IMG/VR virus record: IMGVR_UViG_3300018080_000148
Location: 1 to 64,000 of that record
Length of the DNA stretch: 64,000 bases
Source: a virus
Direction: 5' to 3' (one strand)
Under the pieces are notes generated by a model. That model was not told the DNA's origin. It saw only the letters and a program-made list of their open reading frames with translations, and ran no database searches. Shown here one piece after another: positions 6,783 to 56,559 of this stretch. Both the position numbers and the translations under genes were made by a program. The first letter of the stretch is position 1, and each line of letters begins with the position of its first letter.

Positions 6783-7576
6783 GCGTATCTCCTGAGTTTT
6801 TGATCCATGTCGCCCGCCACATTCAGGATTGCTCCAATTTCCCCCTGAGACAGGACATCTCTCCATTTATCCACCGAAGTCAAATCAATAGGACGAGCAG
6901 AGTCCGTGCCGCCCATCGCCCAACCATTCTTTCCCGTTTCGTCATGCTTCTTCTTATGATGCTCCAACAACTGGTCGCTCCATGAGAGCCGCATCATTTC
7001 CATGACCTTTCTCAAGGTGGGGGCTGGGTCATGCACGAAGCTATTGTAGTAAACCGGCAAAGCCTCCATCTGAAAAAATGCACCGGTCTTGTACTGCCAA
7101 TAAACAGCAGCACGAATCACATCCTCGTGGGGATGCCCCTTAGCCCTCTCCAACACCTCGCCGTAATTCCTTTGCAGGCCACGAGCTTGATCCTTCAACC
7201 AATCATTCAATCGGCTGACGATCTCTCGCTGCATCCAAGCCCCCTTGACTTTGCTTTTGTCGGAAACTTTCTTCATGGATGCAACAACCGAAAGAACGTC
7301 CCGCAACATGAAGACTACATTATCCTGGGGACGCAGGTGTTGACGAATGCAATCGTATTCAACAAACAACTCAGTCCATATTGGCAATTGGAATCCAACC
7401 GCACGAATTTCCTGGGGGAAATCATCCCATGGTCGATTGCCCTCCAAGACCCCATAGCCCTTGATCTCCCCATAGCAATGAATGTTGGGATGGCTATTCA
7501 GAACCAACCTCATCAGCGTCGTGCCACTCCTCTGACAACCAAGGACAAACACCCTGGGCAATTCTTCTGGCTTCAT
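6779..7576 (-). CDS. Sulfotransferase family protein
   Basis: 5'-PSB motif FVLGCQRSGTTLM, 3'-PB RD...VAS, SVDKWR. Confidence 0.88.
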   Translation of the reverse strand: MKPEELPRVFVLGCQRSGTTLMRLVLNSHPNIHCYGEIKGYGVLEGNRPWDDFPQEIRAVGFQLPIWTELFVEYDCIRQHLRPQDNVVFMLRDVLSVVASMKKVSDKSKVKGAWMQREIVSRLNDWLKDQARGLQRNYGEVLERAKGHPHEDVIRAAVYWQYKTGAFFQMEALPVYYNSFVHDPAPTLRKVMEMMRLSWSDQLLEHHKKKHDETGKNGWAMGGTDSARPIDLTSVDKWRDVLSQGEIGAILNVAGDMDQKLRRYA

Positions 7577-9177
7577 TTACTGAAAATCCTATTTATCTCT
7601 TTTATCTCTGGACTGTCGGGAGTTATCACCCTGCCGTGCTTGGCCTCTGCGATCATCGACTCCACCAAATCTATCGCCTCCACCTTATCCTTTTTACCCA
7701 CCCAAAATGGATACGGCATCCGCTCCATATCCTTCCCCTGAATGTTCTGGGTGTGGTTGATGTAGCTCTTCAGAAGCCTTGTGGCTAAATCAGAGACTCC
7801 CCATCCTATAATGAAGTATAACTCGTCTTCATTCACGCCATCTTTCAGGAACCCGCACGGTGCTCCACTGTCTAGGACATAACCTTCCGGCAAGTACCTC
7901 ATCTTAATCCGACTGGCCACCAAGTTCCATGTCAATCCCATGCGCCCGAAATAGGGAAGTCCGCCAATGCCATGTAAATACCAATTGCCGTTCTTTTTAA
8001 AAAGCTTAACGGCCTCTCCATCATTTTTCCAGTAAATTGCATAACGAGCGGGAGCATAGATAATTTCCTTGGTCGCTTTGTTGTAAGGTTTGTAGCCCGA
8101 GTGGTCCTTCAATACCCTGGGCTTCTCCAGAGGGGTGATCCGCACATTCCTGCGTGTCTTACCCTCTAGCTCTTGCCGCCGAACTTCTTCTTCCTTCTTA
8201 GGCGACAACTTGTTCAACCGAGCCCGTGCCTTTTCCCCCTCCAGAGTAATAGGGTCATCAAAGAACTCAAACTCATGAGTCTCTTCTATCTTACCATCCT
8301 TAATCTCCCGGACAAAATACTCGTTTTTGCCCGTTGTCATGCCACCCGTGCAAACAATGTAATCCCCCAACTTTGGCCCCTCAAAATAACGAGCATCTTC
8401 CTTCGTGATCGTCCAAGAAAAATTGCCCGTCATCTCCATGTGCTTTCGCAAAACCGGCTGGCCATCTAAAAGCATTTCGTGCGTTCCAAAGCCCTTGCAG
8501 CCCCGAACAACCACCATGGGATAATCAGTTTCCTCTGAGAAGTATTTCAGACGGTCTACCGCCACTCGGCCATGGTCCATCAAATACCTCCTCAAACCAT
8601 CCATGGTTTTAATGGTTAGGAAACTGTCGCTACAAATGAAGGCATACGCCCCCAGGAAGCGCAGGTGATCCATCGTCTTGAGAACAAACCAGGAATAACT
8701 CTCCTTTTTGATCTTGCGGCCATCTCGCTTGCCGTAGATCTTCTCCCACTTGTCCTGGTGTTCTAGATCAATGGTGGCACCAAACGGAGGATTGCCCGTT
8801 GCGAAATCAAACTCCAGATCGAAGTTCTGATGAAAAAAGTCCCCATAGAGGAGATTGGTTTTCTTCGGACAGCAACCATACCTGTATGCAATAGCCCTTC
8901 TCAATCCTTGGTAAAGGCCAGCATCTATCTCGACCGCCCATATGTTGTTGTTAAGAATGTGGTCTAGTCGAGATTCCATGTTTCCATCTTTGTGCATCTC
9001 CAAAAATCTGTCGATCAATGGAATGACAAAGGAACCATTGCCGCACCCCGGCTCTAAAACCGTACTGCTGGGATGCAGTGGTAAAGAAGACACAATCTTT
9101 GCAGCAGTCTCCACGGGCGTCAAGAACTGCCCAAGCTGTGACTTCTTGTCTCTTTCGTGCTTACGTATTCTTTTCAT
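7573..9177 (-). CDS. N6-adenine DNA methyltransferase (TaqI/Eco57I-like gamma class)
   Basis: LGQFLTP, VLEPGCGNGSF (SAM binding) and GNPPF catalytic motif; no cognate nuclease nearby. Confidence 0.88.
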   Translation of the reverse strand: MKRIRKHERDKKSQLGQFLTPVETAAKIVSSLPLHPSSTVLEPGCGNGSFVIPLIDRFLEMHKDGNMESRLDHILNNNIWAVEIDAGLYQGLRRAIAYRYGCCPKKTNLLYGDFFHQNFDLEFDFATGNPPFGATIDLEHQDKWEKIYGKRDGRKIKKESYSWFVLKTMDHLRFLGAYAFICSDSFLTIKTMDGLRRYLMDHGRVAVDRLKYFSEETDYPMVVVRGCKGFGTHEMLLDGQPVLRKHMEMTGNFSWTITKEDARYFEGPKLGDYIVCTGGMTTGKNEYFVREIKDGKIEETHEFEFFDDPITLEGEKARARLNKLSPKKEEEVRRQELEGKTRRNVRITPLEKPRVLKDHSGYKPYNKATKEIIYAPARYAIYWKNDGEAVKLFKKNGNWYLHGIGGLPYFGRMGLTWNLVASRIKMRYLPEGYVLDSGAPCGFLKDGVNEDELYFIIGWGVSDLATRLLKSYINHTQNIQGKDMERMPYPFWVGKKDKVEAIDLVESMIAEAKHGRVITPDSPEIKEINRIFSK

Positions 9178-48235: not shown

Positions 48236-48321
48236 TGGCCGAGGCGGGACTTGAACCCGCACGGGCGTTACCGCCCACAGGATTTTAAATCCTGAGTGTC
48301 TGCCAATTCCACCACTCGGCC
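48236..48321 (-). tRNA. tRNA-Leu(UAA), CCA not encoded
   Basis: GGCCGAG acceptor stem, GGAAUUGGCAGAC D-arm, CAGGA-UUUAAAA-UCCUG anticodon arm, long variable arm, GGUUCAAGUCC T-arm. Confidence 0.95.
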
Positions 48322-49793: not shown

Positions 49794-51162
49794 CTTCGTC
49801 TTCCTTGTTCTTCTCTTTAAGTTCCTTGGCCCACTCGGAGAAGTTTTCTTTGCTCAAATCGTCGTCCGTCGTGTCGGCAAAGTCCTGTAGCATTTCCGCA
49901 ACGCTGGAAAAGGGACCGTGCATTTCAGCCGTCCCTTCTTTTATCTCGTCCATGCGATCATGCATCTCTTCCAAGAACGCCTTATTGTCTTCGGGACCAC
50001 CATGAAAGCTAATGTCCCAATAAACGGCGTCAATGATTTCTAGAAGAGTGAAGGGGTAGTGGCACTTCAGATGCAGAGTGTTTTTGCCTAAATCTGAAAC
50101 CCACTCACGCACTTCCATTTCTGTGTTGATGGAGAGAGGGAGATGGACCAATTCGTTCACAGGCGTGTAAGAAACGCCGTAATTTTGTTCTTCGGGCGGC
50201 TCGTCTCCGGTTTCTGCGTAGTGCTTCAATAGGTCTTCGTCGCAGGGGCCGAGGCCGTGGAAGTCGTAGTTGAGATCGAGCGACACACGATGAGCACGGG
50301 ATTTGTTCTTCTCTACCCAACGGTGAACTTCTCCAGTGCGATAAATCTCCAGGCGGTTTACCACCGTGTCCGGTTCACACGGCTCTTTGGCCTGCGCATG
50401 AAATTCGTCGATGGCTCGGCACCACGAGTAACAAGAGATGAACTGTTTGAGATCTTCGTGAGCCTCAACGAAGTTGAACAGATCCCCCAGCGTCATGCCA
50501 TCCACGTTGCACGTGTGCATCAAGTAGTTGATGGGATTGAAGATTTGCTCACCATCTTCATTGAACAACCCTTGCGGCATCAAAACCAACGATTTTTCGG
50601 AGTGGCTGCCGAAAAGGTGGTAGAGAAGATCAAGTAGGGTATATCCCCACTCGCTCGTGATCGTTTCCTTGCCGCAGAACAGTTCTACCTTTTCGTCGAT
50701 CTTCAACGGAGCGTAGGGGTGGAGACAGGGAGTGTGATCGCTATCGTAGGTGGTTTTTAAAATCCCATCCTTGACTTCGAGTTTCTGAAAGAGGGTGATC
50801 GGGTCGTCGGAGATGGGGCCGGGTAATTCGTGGTAGATGTCGAAACCGGGCAAAAACCAGCCGGTTAGCCCCAAGAGAAGATCGTCGCCTTCCACAATTT
50901 CCATGATGTCACGAACGGAGACATCTTCAGTGAATTTGATGGGGTCACGCAGAGCGGCCCAGGTGTTTTTGGGCGGACTCTCTACGTCGAAGAAGAATTC
51001 CTCGACCTCTTCTTTGTCGGGCGTGGCCGAGACCACTTCCTTGGTCTCGTCGTTGATGACGGCCCAGAGGTTGCCCTGCTTCTTGACCGTGTGATCGCCT
51101 CGGCGATCAGAATTCCATCTACGGAGGGTCAGTCCGTTGCGTGCTATCTGAAGATTTCTCAT
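49786..51162 (-). CDS. Hypothetical protein (458 aa)
   Basis: Long ORF coupled to both neighbours. Confidence 0.75.
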   Translation of the reverse strand: MRNLQIARNGLTLRRWNSDRRGDHTVKKQGNLWAVINDETKEVVSATPDKEEVEEFFFDVESPPKNTWAALRDPIKFTEDVSVRDIMEIVEGDDLLLGLTGWFLPGFDIYHELPGPISDDPITLFQKLEVKDGILKTTYDSDHTPCLHPYAPLKIDEKVELFCGKETITSEWGYTLLDLLYHLFGSHSEKSLVLMPQGLFNEDGEQIFNPINYLMHTCNVDGMTLGDLFNFVEAHEDLKQFISCYSWCRAIDEFHAQAKEPCEPDTVVNRLEIYRTGEVHRWVEKNKSRAHRVSLDLNYDFHGLGPCDEDLLKHYAETGDEPPEEQNYGVSYTPVNELVHLPLSINTEMEVREWVSDLGKNTLHLKCHYPFTLLEIIDAVYWDISFHGGPEDNKAFLEEMHDRMDEIKEGTAEMHGPFSSVAEMLQDFADTTDDDLSKENFSEWAKELKEKNKEDEDV

Positions 51163-52001
51163 CCGTGATTCCCACTTTCTCCAAAAACCAAATGGCGGAC
51201 AGATTGTCCAGTATCTTTCAATTCTCGGAGAGATTCAATCCCTATTTGCAGGTGTTGTGAGGTGAACTGTTGGGTCACTTCGTCATCCCCCTTGTCCGTT
51301 TTTACGCCTTCGGGGGTCATAGGCATGTCCGAGCATAGTAGGAAGGCGCTGTGCGGGATGTGATTGGCGAAGCTGACGATAAAGAAGGTTGCCGTCTCCA
51401 TGTCAATGCCGATACACCGAAGTGAATGGAGATACTCCTTGAACTTCTCGTCATGCTCCCACAGTCGGCGGTTCGTTGTGTAAACCATGCCGGTGTGGTA
51501 AGCAAGTCCGTTGTCAGTGATGACGTGAGCGGTAGCCTGCATCATCTGGAAAGATGGTAGGGCTGGAACCTCGGGTGGATAGTAGCTGTCGGATGTACCC
51601 TCGCCACGGATAGCGGCAATAGGAAGGATGAAGTCGCCGACGTTCACAAACTCTCTCAATCCTCCGCACTTGCCCAAGAACAACACAGCCTTGGGGTGGA
51701 CCACCGATAGAAGGTCGCATAGGGTTGCCGCCATTGGCGAACCCATGCCAAAGTTGATGATCGTGATGCCGTCCGCTGATGTGGCGGTTTGCATGGGATT
51801 GCCAAGACCACGCATCTGACAATCCTCAACCAGGGCGAACTCCTTCACATAGGAAATAAAATTGGTAACGAGGATATACCGGCCAAACCCATCCAAGGGC
51901 GTGTCGGTGTAGCGAGGCAGCCAATTTTCTGCTATTTCACTTTTGGTCTTCACTGTCGCAAAACCCTTCGCCCAAGACATCGAATTCGTGGGTGTAACCA
52001 T
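51159..52001 (-). CDS. amn: AMP nucleosidase (short PNP-fold type); alternative GTG start at 51953
   Basis: NWLPRYT, YILVTNF, INFGMGS, FLGKCGGL, AAIRGEGTS, TTNRRLWE, IDMETAT and PEGVKT motifs. Confidence 0.9.
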   Translation of the reverse strand: MVTPTNSMSWAKGFATVKTKSEIAENWLPRYTDTPLDGFGRYILVTNFISYVKEFALVEDCQMRGLGNPMQTATSADGITIINFGMGSPMAATLCDLLSVVHPKAVLFLGKCGGLREFVNVGDFILPIAAIRGEGTSDSYYPPEVPALPSFQMMQATAHVITDNGLAYHTGMVYTTNRRLWEHDEKFKEYLHSLRCIGIDMETATFFIVSFANHIPHSAFLLCSDMPMTPEGVKTDKGDDEVTQQFTSQHLQIGIESLRELKDTGQSVRHLVFGESGNHG

Positions 52002-52115
52002 TTAACCCACGCTCTTGCCAGCAACCACAATCCCAGCGAACAGTGTCGCCTTCGTCGTAATTGATGATAATCCCCGTGCGGCAGTTGCCGCACGGGGATT
52101 CGGTGTTCATGAATT

Positions 52116-52427
52116 TCATTTTGGTCGTCTCGGAGGCTTTTTACCTTGCTTGTGGTTCGCCAGCAATTTCAAAAAAGCTTTGGCAAAAGCTGGCGGCAGT
52201 TCAACTTTTTGGCTCAGAAGGCCCATTGTCCCCTTCATGAGGGTGCCGTTACAGCCAAAATTGCAAATGTCGATTCCGCCATCCTCGAAGAGGTAGAAGT
52301 CGTACCAATTTCCTTCTACTTCGATTTCACCGAGAAATGTGGATGGGTTGGTTGGGTCGTAGCCAAACCGCTCGATTTTCAATGCCCGCTGTTCTTCCGG
52401 TGTCATTTGATTCCAGGGCTTTTCCAT
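52116..52427 (-). CDS. Hypothetical protein
   Basis: AAGGAG RBS, 103 aa. Confidence 0.6.
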   Translation of the reverse strand: MEKPWNQMTPEEQRALKIERFGYDPTNPSTFLGEIEVEGNWYDFYLFEDGGIDICNFGCNGTLMKGTMGLLSQKVELPPAFAKAFLKLLANHKQGKKPPRRPK

Positions 52428-52478
52428 TGCGGGGTTCTCCTTGTGGAAATTGTAGCCCAGGAAGAGTGAATTGTAAAC

Positions 52479-52670
52479 GAGAGTCCCCGTAAGCCGGATT
52501 CTGTTCTATGCCGCCATTTATCTGTTGGCCACTACCCGGCGTCACAGGGTTGCTCACCCCCTCAGCCTGTTTGTGTTGCAACCTGGGTGGTGTGTGCGGG
52601 CGATGCCCTCCCACCGTGAGCAATGTTGTCCGGACTTTCCTCACCGAAGTGCGGCGGCTCGGGACTACTC
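52479..52670 (-). ncRNA. rnpB: Miniaturised RNase P RNA
   Basis: GAGGAAAGUCCGG (52630-52642), ACAGAAUCCGGCUUA (52490-52504), AGAUAAAUG, GGGUAG, P1/P2/P3 pairings and upstream TATACT. Confidence 0.88.
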
Positions 52671-52678
52671 TTAGACAC

Positions 52679-52684
52679 AGTATA
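52679..52684 (-). promoter_or_regulatory. -10 element for the RNase P-like RNA
   Basis: TATACT about 8 nt upstream of the P1 5' strand. Confidence 0.5.
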
Positions 52685-52704
52685 GCGGAAAAGGTTCGCC
52701 TCCC

Positions 52705-53844
52705 CTACTTCCCTTCCTCTTCCCCCTTACGACCGGAGGTTTGCTGTAAGTCGTGTGGCCGCAATTCTTTGCGGCATGCATGAACAGCAGCGGCAATCAC
52801 CTGATGCATGTCGTAGTATTTGTAGGTTCCCAGCCGTCCACCAAAGATTACATCGGGCTCTTGCTTGGCAGCCTCCTGGTACTTTTTGCACAAGGCGTTG
52901 TTCTGTTCGTCGTTGATCGGGTAATACCGGGGTTCTCCCGGCTTCCATTCTTGCGGGTACTCGAATGTGAAGACGGTCTTCTCTTGTGTGCCGAACTCGA
53001 AGTGCTTGTGTTCAATGATCCGGGTGTGTTGCTTTTCTTCTTCGGTGTAGTTGACAACAGCGTTGCCCTGCATGTCTCCGGTAGACGTTACGTGTGTAAA
53101 CCTTAGAGAACGATACTCCAAAGGACCGTGCATGTACATGAAGAACTCATCGATGGGGCCAGTGAACACCAACTTCTTGGCCAACCTCTGCCAATCTTCC
53201 CCTGGGGTGAATTTGCAATTCAGTTCAAGGTCAATGCCCTTTAGCATCTTTTCAACGATTTGGGTATAACCGCCGATAGGGATGCCCTGGTATCTATCCT
53301 TGTAGTAGTTGTCGTCATAAGTCAGTCGGATCGGCAATCGTTTTATGATGAAAGCTGGCAACTCCTTGGGATCTCGGCCCCACTGTTTCTTCGTGTACCC
53401 TCGAATGAATATTTCGTAGATCTCTTCGCCAACCTGAGACAGAGCCCATTCCTCTAAGTTGCTGGGGTTTTCACACGGCACACGGACAGACGCCAGTTTC
53501 TTTTCCGCTTCTTCTGGAGATCCCACGCCCCATAATTGATGGAGGGTCAATAGGTTTATGGGGAAGGAGTACATTCTTCTCTTGTATCTTACCTTTGGGC
53601 GGTTGACGAAGTGGTTGAACTCGGCGAACCGGTTTACGTAGTTCCAGATTTCGTAGCTGTTGGTATGAAAGATGTGAGGTCCGTGGCAATGTACGTTGAT
53701 GCCGCCAACGTTTCTCGTATAGATGTGCCCAGCCACATGCTTGCCTCTTTCCCAAACAAGGACTTTTTTGCCATTCATTGCCATTTCATGGGCGAAGGTG
53801 GCACCGTATAGTCCTGCGCCCACTACAAGATAGTCGTATTTCAT
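52705..53844 (-). CDS. glf: UDP-galactopyranose mutase
   Basis: VVGAGLYG, GPHIFHT, YTKKQWG, YQGIP.GGY, LEYRSL, YYPIN and GRLGTYKYYDM motifs. Confidence 0.96.
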   Translation of the reverse strand: MKYDYLVVGAGLYGATFAHEMAMNGKKVLVWERGKHVAGHIYTRNVGGINVHCHGPHIFHTNSYEIWNYVNRFAEFNHFVNRPKVRYKRRMYSFPINLLTLHQLWGVGSPEEAEKKLASVRVPCENPSNLEEWALSQVGEEIYEIFIRGYTKKQWGRDPKELPAFIIKRLPIRLTYDDNYYKDRYQGIPIGGYTQIVEKMLKGIDLELNCKFTPGEDWQRLAKKLVFTGPIDEFFMYMHGPLEYRSLRFTHVTSTGDMQGNAVVNYTEEEKQHTRIIEHKHFEFGTQEKTVFTFEYPQEWKPGEPRYYPINDEQNNALCKKYQEAAKQEPDVIFGGRLGTYKYYDMHQVIAAAVHACRKELRPHDLQQTSGRKGEEEGK

Positions 53845-53877
53845 ATTTAATAATTTCACCTTCTGCTATATACAATC

Positions 53878-54567
53878 ATGATAGATATGACGCACAATTT
53901 TTTCGATTCACATCCGGATTTTTATGAGGGCGACTATGCCAACCAACCTGAGGCTATGTCTCTTAGGTTCAAGGCCATCATTGGCGACAATGTTGAAATT
54001 ATACGAGGAGCCAGAATAGTTGACCTTGGCTTTTTTGATGGACGGTGGGGTTTTGCCGCATTAAAGAACGGAGCCCAGTTCGTTAGGGGGTACGATGCCA
54101 GAAAAGAAAACCTAGATCGAGCAAAGCATTTGTTCGAGAAGTATGGCATGAAGAACTATGAATTTGTACAACTCAATTTAGATACGCATCCAGAGGGAAT
54201 TGTCGGCCACTACGATGTGGCGTTTGTTTTGGGGTTGATTTATCACACGGCAAATCACTTGTCGCTATTGAGTCACATAGTAGATACTGGCGTGAAACAC
54301 ATTATTGTTGATTCCAATGTTATACGCAGTAATAAACCCACCGTGCTGTTGAAGTGGGAGAACACAAGCAAGTTGGCGTGTGGTTTTTCTGAAGTCGCAA
54401 CAGTCCCCGTCGCTGTTCCGTCTGTAGGATCTCTTAAGCTGCTATTGAGCTATTTTGGCTTTAATCAATTGAGGTTTTTTGATTGGAGCAACATCCCCAA
54501 AAGCAACATAAGATCACTGGCTAAATATCGCAAAGGTGAACGAGTCACATTCGTGGCTTCTAAATGA
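53878..54567 (+). CDS. Class I SAM-dependent methyltransferase
   Basis: IVDLGFFDGRW and YDVAFVLGLIYH motifs. Confidence 0.85.
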   Translation: MIDMTHNFFDSHPDFYEGDYANQPEAMSLRFKAIIGDNVEIIRGARIVDLGFFDGRWGFAALKNGAQFVRGYDARKENLDRAKHLFEKYGMKNYEFVQLNLDTHPEGIVGHYDVAFVLGLIYHTANHLSLLSHIVDTGVKHIIVDSNVIRSNKPTVLLKWENTSKLACGFSEVATVPVAVPSVGSLKLLLSYFGFNQLRFFDWSNIPKSNIRSLAKYRKGERVTFVASK

Positions 54568-56479: not shown

Positions 56480-56559
56480 CGGAAGCGACAGGACTCGAAC
56501 CTGCAACCCTTTCGGGCAACCGGCTTCCAACCGGCTTCCTCACCATTCGGATCGCTTCC
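56480..56559 (-). tRNA. tRNA-Ser(GGA), CCA not encoded
   Basis: GGAAGCG acceptor stem, GCCGG-UUGGAAG-CCGGU anticodon arm, CCC-GAAA-GGG variable arm, GGUUCGAGUCC T-arm, G discriminator. Confidence 0.9.

Follow-up and report, generated by a model that had tools for sequence, protein, structure and literature searches.

A half-size homologue of bacterial RNase P RNA, reduced to its catalytic domain, in a phage-type metagenomic virus record

Introduction

The first 64,000 nucleotides (nt) of the IMG/VR virus record IMGVR_UViG_3300018080_000148 (the window, in what follows) contain, on the minus strand at 52479–52670, a homologue of bacterial-type ribonuclease P (RNase P) RNA, whose match to the bacterial family is far beyond chance. 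This RNA consists of the catalytic domain and of a stub of 30 bases, and it lies within a stretch of DNA that is rich in transfer RNA (tRNA) genes. We consider that it is probably a functional phage gene; its product would be an RNase P RNA made of the catalytic domain only, which would trim tRNA precursors of the phage itself and would probably rely for this on the RnpA protein of the host.

RNase P RNA is the ribozyme that trims new tRNAs. In bacteria, its catalytic domain (C-domain) comprises the active site (P4, J5/15 and the conserved regions CR-IV and CR-V), the surface to which RnpA binds, and the GGU of the L15 loop, which pairs with the 3' end of the tRNA; the specificity domain (S-domain) reads the T-loop/D-loop elbow of the tRNA. 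This housekeeping ribozyme is regarded as a hallmark of cells, and a copy carried by a virus would define a new class of viral auxiliary genes, devoted to RNA processing and not to metabolism.

The window is the beginning of a linear record of 89,922 bases, whose completeness is estimated at 18% by CheckV; if this value is right, the genome of the phage is about 500 kb long. Open reading frames (ORFs) of the record match phage-type families of PHROGs: a UvsX-like recombinase, a DnaB-like helicase, a family-A DNA polymerase, an SbcCD-like nuclease and a ribonucleotide reductase. Several helicases and a DNA methylase are also matched. With the viral classification in IMG/VR, these replication and recombination genes agree with a proposal made earlier from the letters of this DNA (the sequence-only reading), according to which an RNase P RNA is encoded here by a phage.

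An RNase P RNA reduced to its catalytic domain

Infernal aligns positions 52475–52670 of the minus strand to RF00010, the Rfam model of bacterial class A RNase P RNA, from one end to the other (model positions 1–367 of 367), with 72.4 bits and an E-value of 4.7e-22 in a permissive scan of 601 bases (52300–52900). The 89.9-kb record has no other match to this model (over the full record, the E-value is 1.7e-23), and RF00010 is the top-scoring family of the RNase P clan for this RNA, two weaker and unnamed matches of the clan having been suppressed. The RNA is 192 nt long from P1 to P1 (it then ends at 52479) and 196 nt long as a model match (to 52475). The z-score of its minimum free energy (MFE) is −3.8, and none of 200 shuffled sequences folds equally well.

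All 57 base pairs that we draw in this RNA are canonical. With position 1 of the RNA at 52670 and position 196 at 52475, P1 is formed by RNA positions 1–11 with 182–192 (10 bp and two single-base bulges), P2 by 13–18 with 156–161, and P3 by 20–22 with 27–29; the latter has only 3 bp, capped by a UUCG loop, where the model has 9 pairs. CR-I, with the 5' strand of P4 (52630–52642, RNA 29–41), is identical to the RF00010 consensus and invariant in all 11 aligned miniature RNAs. CR-V, with the 3' strand of P4 (52490–52504, RNA 167–181), matches the consensus as well and is seen in the alignments of the miniature RNAs; the seven pairs of P4 are all canonical. CR-IV, in the J18-2 region (52514–52523, RNA 148–157), aligns to the AGAugAAUG block of the model and leads into the 3' strand of P2.

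P5 pairs RNA positions 43–46 with 89–92. The segment that follows it, J5/7, provides the 5' strand of the P6 pseudoknot (52616–52623, RNA 48–55), which is a perfect 8-bp complement to the 3' strand in the loop of P17 (52550–52557, RNA 114–121). J5/15 (CAA), P15, P16, P17 and the L15 internal loop occupy 52530–52578, aligned to the P15–P17 part of RF00010: P15 is formed by RNA 96–98 with 139–141, P16 by 104–106 with 131–133, P17 by 109–112 with 122–125, and the L15 loop, GGGUA, lies at 52533–52537 (RNA 134–138).

What remains of the S-domain is the 30-base stub at 52586–52615 (RNA 56–85), made of a 5-bp P7 (56–60 with 81–85) that encloses a 4-bp hairpin with a 3-base loop (63–66 with 70–73), and of a 7-base single strand. 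Where the model has three segments, of 15, 15 and 110 positions, the RNA has 6, 4 and 15 bases (140 positions reduced to 25), while the 23 positions of P18 are reduced to one base. P8–P14, hence the CR-II/CR-III region, and P18 are thus lost. The alignment supports the view that the catalytic domain has been kept intact while nearly the whole specificity domain was deleted.

This anatomy is essentially the one anticipated by the sequence-only reading, which gave the letters of the minus strand of 52475–52670 exactly as they are. It had estimated the size at about 190 nt, had described a catalytic core from which most of the specificity domain is missing, and had pointed to pairings in P1, P2 and P3, to CR-I, CR-IV and CR-V and to the GGU of L15; each of these elements falls on the corresponding position of RF00010.

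Covariation among miniature relatives

Pattern scans for a short spacing between CR-I and CR-V returned other miniature RNAs from IMG/VR (L002, L003, whose RNA is identical in L006, L004, L005, L007 and L014), from JGI and other metagenomes (L009–L013), and from contigs of metagenome-assembled genomes, or MAGs (four, L015–L018, in a scan of 185,579 species genomes). L008 and L002 being one and the same contig, the miniature RNAs L002–L014 amount to 11 distinct ones. All those from L002 to L018 align to RF00010 from end to end, over 187–243 nt and with 30.8–162 bits. Narrower searches were negative: a stretch of 27 bases taken from the window, searched as an exact pattern, was found in none of the viral contigs; a CR-I to CR-V pattern with a spacing of 75–105 gave no match; nor did a degenerate CR-I/CR-V pattern with a spacing of 100–130, a range outside which L002 falls (its spacing is 133); a pattern specific to the stub shared by the window RNA, L011 and L015 was not found either. 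A blastn search with the miniature RNA matched none of 50,697 GenBank phage records, the conserved blocks being probably too short for this program.

We built a covariance model, R1, on the window RNA alone, with our own structure, and searched 16 sources with it. It matched 12 of them: the window itself, L011 (131.8 bits), L015 (81.1 bits), L005, L004, L014, L003, L007, L002, L010, L009 and L013. The other four, L012, L016, L017 and L018, gave no match at E ≤ 0.01. Within this set, the nearest relatives of the window RNA are L011 and L015 only.

In the resulting alignment of 12 sequences, 96.4% of the 496 cells pair, against 30.0–41.8% after a shift of the 3' partners by 1–3 columns, and 34 of the 57 pairs have changed on both sides; the observed pair counts are reached by none of 500 shuffles on any of five measures. 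Compensatory pairs occur in every helix except P4, in which six of the seven pairs are invariant in all 12 sequences and the seventh is unpaired in one of them. In P7, the five pairs all change on both sides.

P1, P2, P3, P5 and P15–P17 are helices of Rfam's independent model, and the relatives were each aligned separately to RF00010. As for P6, it consists of 6–8 bp, with quite different letters, in seven of the eight miniature RNAs that keep P15–P17 (all but L005), and only 2 of 2000 shuffles of the loops give a P6 as good as the 8-bp one of the window RNA. RNAalifold, run on the three closest sequences after an unguided alignment by MAFFT, also recovers P6, as well as P7 and the hairpin of the stub; it mis-pairs the pseudoknotted remainder because it draws nested pairs only. 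Compensatory changes among homologues, to which the sequence-only reading had looked for support, are therefore present in P1, P2, P3, P5, P15–P17 and the P6 pseudoknot, P4 being too invariant to be informative.

Conservation is also apparent at short range, in a comparison of 51500–53900 with the contigs of four public runs, one of which appears to correspond to the source sample. A contig of 2,988 nt, from another study, aligns without gaps to 52449–52697 (the RNA with its flanks), from which it has 12 differences, and keeps 51500–51926 with 21 differences, while 354 unrelated letters replace 522 bases downstream of the RNA, including an ORF of 103 amino acids. The RNA gene is thus kept, at about 95% identity, while the neighboring ORF has been exchanged.

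A second miniature architecture was encountered in L002 (10596–10802), L009, L010, L013, L017 and L018, whose RNAs are about 205–217 nt long and score 102–162 bits on RF00010. Judging from the alignment of L002, it keeps P7–P9 and P18 and has lost the P11–P14 region and most of P15–P17. Some of these RNAs might be cellular, because no full-size RNase P RNA was found in three MAGs (G002–G004) that contain a miniature RNA of this second architecture; the copy in G002, L016, scores 41.3 bits.

tRNA genes as candidate substrates

According to ARAGORN, the record has 13 tRNA genes, which are all on the strand of the miniature RNA, and the latter lies within the 26-kb stretch that they span (record 48235–74213). 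There are six tRNA-Leu, five tRNA-Ser, one tRNA-Tyr and one tRNA-Phe, with Leu-UAA and Ser-GGA in duplicate; tRNAs with a long variable arm (Leu, Ser and Tyr) make up 12 of the 13. The CCA end is encoded by none of these genes, and the discriminator is followed by C and then U in all of them. It is conceivable, although speculative, that this C-U pairs with two G's of L15 (C–G and U–G) despite the lack of an encoded CCA. Candidate substrates include tRNA-Leu(UAA), at 48236–48321, and tRNA-Ser(GGA), at 56480–56559, both on the minus strand and both devoid of an encoded CCA.

Most of the tRNA genes are closely followed by an ORF, whose Shine-Dalgarno sequence and ATG are found within about 10–25 bases downstream, for example at record positions 48236, 56480, 66295, 67857, 70249, 71264, 73158 and 73945 (minus strand). 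From this arrangement, the tRNAs seem to punctuate polycistronic protein-coding mRNAs, rather as they do in mitochondria. Rfam adds two longer tRNA matches to the genes found by ARAGORN, at L019 2828–2951 and L019 6930–7024 (both on the minus strand, of 124 and 95 nt, with 46.5 and 56.8 bits), which may contain insertions.

Beyond the end of the window, at record 70313–70396 (L019 6313–6396, minus strand), Rfam reports a match to Bacteria_small_SRP, the small RNA of the signal recognition particle (SRP), with 41.9 bits for a cut-off of 40. This SRP-like hairpin of about 50 nt has a loop similar to that of domain IV of 4.5S RNA (GGAA tetraloop region), and the z-score of its MFE is only −1.1. 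It ends 2 bases 5' of tRNA-Leu(UAG), whose leader it forms, and a cleavage of this tRNA precursor by RNase P would be predicted to release it. Pre-4.5S RNA is a known substrate of RNase P, as stated in the accessible text of a 2024 review (PMC11143913).

The relatives are often surrounded by tRNA genes too. Seven of the 11 distinct miniature RNAs (L002, L003, L004, L005, L007, L011 and L014) lie among 3–29 of them; L010 has one nearby, and L009, L012 and L013 have none in the available DNA. L015 is on a 1.5-kb contig of an unpublished genome that consists almost entirely of tRNA genes (10 according to Rfam, 13 according to ARAGORN), so that both nearest relatives of the window RNA, L011 and L015, are located within tRNA arrays. 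The habit of the family is therefore to reside inside a phage tRNA cluster, of which the window offers a looser version. In the other phage arrays with a miniature RNase P RNA, nearly all the tRNA genes have C at position 74, but the full CCA is rarely encoded; L005 is an exception, since its eight tRNA genes all encode CCA.

One of these arrays, in a viral contig of 115 kb (L004), gathers 18 tRNA genes, a GOLLD RNA (199.7 bits), a transfer-messenger RNA (93 bits) and a miniature RNase P RNA of 235 nt, the last three elements being at 2438–2853, 6827–7195 and 8917–9151.

Comparison with known RNase P RNAs

In our comparison, the miniature RNA appears to work like, and to descend from, bacterial class A RNase P RNA (RF00010; M1 RNA of E. 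coli, encoded by rnpB), with which it shares the elements of the catalytic domain, in the same order. It differs from it by its length (192–196 nt, against 367 positions in the model), by the loss of P8–P14, CR-II/CR-III and P18, by a P3 cut to 3 bp with a UUCG loop, by a P6 lengthened to 8 bp, and by being encoded in a virus. The features of class A that it does not display are the S-domain, P18 and a score above the Rfam cut-off.

The sequence-only reading had drawn a parallel with the type T RNase P RNA of archaea (Thermoproteaceae, Pyrobaculum). The parallel holds for the design, the S-domain being almost wholly absent from type T too, as far as the accessible text of PMC7191817 describes it; it does not hold for membership, RF00010 being the best family of the clan. 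We see here a shared design, not a common descent: type T is archaeal and cellular, while the phage RNA best fits bacterial class A, keeps the bacterial P15–P17/L15 module and belongs to a record with bacterial-type genes.

The closest parallel in design is an engineered ribozyme, the C-domain of E. coli RNase P RNA (Eco CP RPR). According to Mao et al. (2018, PMC5839562), this domain can cleave substrates by itself, although less efficiently; a 'P6-mimic' is what its efficiency depends on, and P18 brings no benefit when the S-domain is missing. Like this construct, the phage RNA has neither S-domain nor P18, and its P6 is strengthened. The construct is man-made, however, whereas the phage RNA comes from a gene that exists in nature and evolves, and it retains a small P7 stub.

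Reduced RNase P RNAs also exist in cells. Those of bacteria of the candidate phyla radiation (CPR) and of Mycoplasma fermentans are devoid of P12, P13, P14 and P18 and score below the Rfam thresholds (PMC8172020, in its accessible text). As described there, these RNAs keep the rest of the S-domain, whereas the phage RNA loses all of P8–P14 and is viral.

Full-text literature searches returned no description of an RNase P RNA encoded by a phage or another virus; supplements (such as the lists of non-coding RNAs of huge phages) and the majority of subscription journals are outside their coverage, so that a prior mention is possible. The 2024 review of RNase P in the Journal of Biological Chemistry (PMC11143913) mentions phages, in its accessible part, only as sources of substrates, and the words phage, virus and viral do not occur in the P Finder paper.

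If the window RNA and its relatives are active, they would represent a natural experiment on minimal RNase P, in which evolution has repeatedly reached the design that emerges from deletion studies (C-domain alone, P6 needed, P18 dispensable; accessible text of PMC5839562). They would make it possible to test which share of RNase P is required in vivo, what purpose the S-domain serves, and whether an RNA of half size is still able to make use of RnpA.

Proposed function

We favor the idea that this is a working RNase P RNA, because its design, without S-domain or P18 and with a P6 of 8 bp, matches that of the engineered C-domain of E. coli. In the mechanism that we propose, the RNA would fold into a type-A catalytic core (P1–P5, the P4 and P6 pseudoknots, P15–P17, the GGU loop, CR-I, CR-IV and CR-V), the GGU loop would dock the 3' end of the tRNA, and the core would cut the 5' leaders off the phage tRNA precursors, which are transcribed, presumably, from the at least 13 same-strand tRNA genes dispersed among protein genes. 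The RNA would have shed P8–P14, which measure the elbow, and their strut, P18; the lengthened P6 would hold the small core together, and the protein would most likely be RnpA, borrowed from the host.

A bolder version of this idea may be considered, which we put forward only tentatively. The 192-nt ribozyme, blind to the elbow and acting with host RnpA, with an unrecognized phage protein or alone, might mature the CCA-less tRNAs, punctuate polycistronic transcripts (a cut at each embedded tRNA would free an mRNA that starts a few bases further on) and release the SRP-RNA-like leader of tRNA-Leu(UAG), which would make the expression of the phage genes independent of host rnpB. If so, it would be among the smallest natural RNase P RNAs of bacterial lineage, and a trans-acting ribozyme encoded by a virus.

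Several observations weigh against a functional RNase P RNA of phage origin. The score of 72.4 bits is below the gathering cut-off of RF00010, which is 100 bits. The covariance-model search that the sequence-only reading had suggested as a check thus yields an end-to-end match with a very low E-value, though one that lies under this threshold, and a scan of the whole window with Rfam at its curated thresholds returns a single tRNA. The RNA is missed by default annotation because half of the model is deleted, and the miniature RNase P RNAs whose scores are below the cut-off are for this reason invisible to it. The R1 alignment was fitted to our own structure, which favors that structure. P3, P15 and P16 have 3 pairs each, and their stability may be marginal. 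The tRNA genes of the phage do not encode CCA, whereas the RNA retains a GGU loop known to pair with it. The RNA is not part of a compact tRNA array, the nearest tRNA genes lying at distances of 4.2 and 3.8 kb. Neither rnpA (PF00825, E ≤ 1) nor the CCA-adding enzyme (PF01743) nor RtcB (PF01139) has a match in the record, whose completeness is estimated at only 18%, so that these genes may well be present elsewhere in the phage; the sequence-only reading had already noted that no rnpA is visible in the window. Neither capsid nor terminase was detected among the 40 ORFs that were scanned, and the viral status therefore rests on the IMG/VR classification and on the PHROGs matches. Last, the transcription of the RNA and the cleavage that it would catalyze are predictions made from its sequence.

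Alternative explanations

Three other explanations must be weighed, the first of which we regard as improbable. The RNA could be a sponge for RnpA, or a host-takeover RNA, which binds the host protein through P2, P3, P4, CR-IV and CR-V, is a poor enzyme, and either starves the host rnpB RNA or redirects the protein. It is true that the protein-facing core is intact while the half that measures the substrate is gone, that the record contains no rnpA, and that the C-domain alone is said to cleave 'with reduced efficiency' in the accessible text of PMC5839562. A sponge, however, has no need of the GGU loop, of J5/15 or of the P15–P17/P6 scaffold, and yet these elements are conserved and covary. 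The presence of relatives within tRNA arrays fits a role in processing better, and a starvation of RNase P would also block the maturation of the phage's own tRNAs, of which there are at least 13.

We give even less credit to the idea that the RNA is a decaying relic of a captured host rnpB, with no present function. Its half size, its score below the Rfam cut-off and its position outside a compact tRNA array would be expected of a relic; on the contrary, none of the 57 pairs is broken in the window copy, the same deletions recur, with compensatory changes, in independent contigs from different samples, and the gene is kept at about 95% identity in the relative whose neighboring ORF has been swapped.

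It is just as doubtful that the contig, although classed as viral, comes from a reduced cellular genome or from some other mobile element, in which case the RNA would be an ordinary reduced RNase P RNA. The lack of capsid and terminase genes among the scanned ORFs, the occurrence of reduced RNase P RNAs in CPR bacteria (accessible text of PMC8172020) and the three MAGs G002–G004, in which a miniature RNA of the second architecture was found but a full-size RNase P RNA was not, go in this direction. The viral classification in IMG/VR and the UvsX-like, DnaB-like, family-A polymerase, SbcCD-like and ribonucleotide reductase matches to PHROGs go against it, and so does the set of tRNAs, which is redundant and covers only a few amino acids (Leu, Ser, Tyr and Phe). 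Moreover, the MAG that contains the close relative L015 (G001, an unpublished genome) has a full-size RNase P RNA of 384 nt (320.9 bits) on another contig. An RNase P RNA encoded by a phage and serving its own tRNAs thus remains, in our opinion, the most probable interpretation.

Surroundings of the gene

The RNA gene of the window differs from most of its relatives in that it has protein genes on both sides and a −10-like hexamer of its own, and is not part of a compact tRNA array. It is located 34 bases past the stop codon of a gene for UDP-galactopyranose mutase (52705–53859; Pfam GLF, E 1.5e-77). The hexamer, TATACT, which the sequence-only reading had noticed just upstream of the RNA, is indeed found at 52684–52679 on the minus strand, 8 bases 5' of the first base of P1; it is a candidate promoter element only, as it is accompanied by no good −35 and is not called by a consensus promoter scan. 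No intrinsic terminator is called on the minus strand.

On the other side, the ORF of 103 amino acids (52116–52427, minus strand) begins 47 bases beyond the RNA. It belongs to no Pfam family and has a basic C-terminal tail. A sigma-70-like promoter, TTTACA-17-TACAAT (52449–52477, minus strand, 10 of 12 consensus matches), begins at the 3' tail of the RNA and serves this ORF, since AAGGAG and then ATG follow downstream. The product of the ORF was considered as a protein partner of the RNA and was dropped, because it has no Pfam match and is replaced in the contig of the relative.

The vicinity of glf is not a conserved feature either: R1 matched none of 80 viral loci with a glf homologue (E ≤ 1, 547 kb), which shows that the association of glf with RNase P RNA is not a conserved pairing and also provides a negative control for R1.

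Further downstream, at 51159–52001 (minus strand), there is a gene of the AMP nucleosidase type (Pfam PNP_UDP_1), apparently an auxiliary metabolic gene. The protein that it encodes is 70–78% identical to many bacterial proteins, including those of Planctomycetota and Bacteroidota, which gives a weak hint about the host range, and its 90% cluster includes a member on a 30-kb ENA contig.

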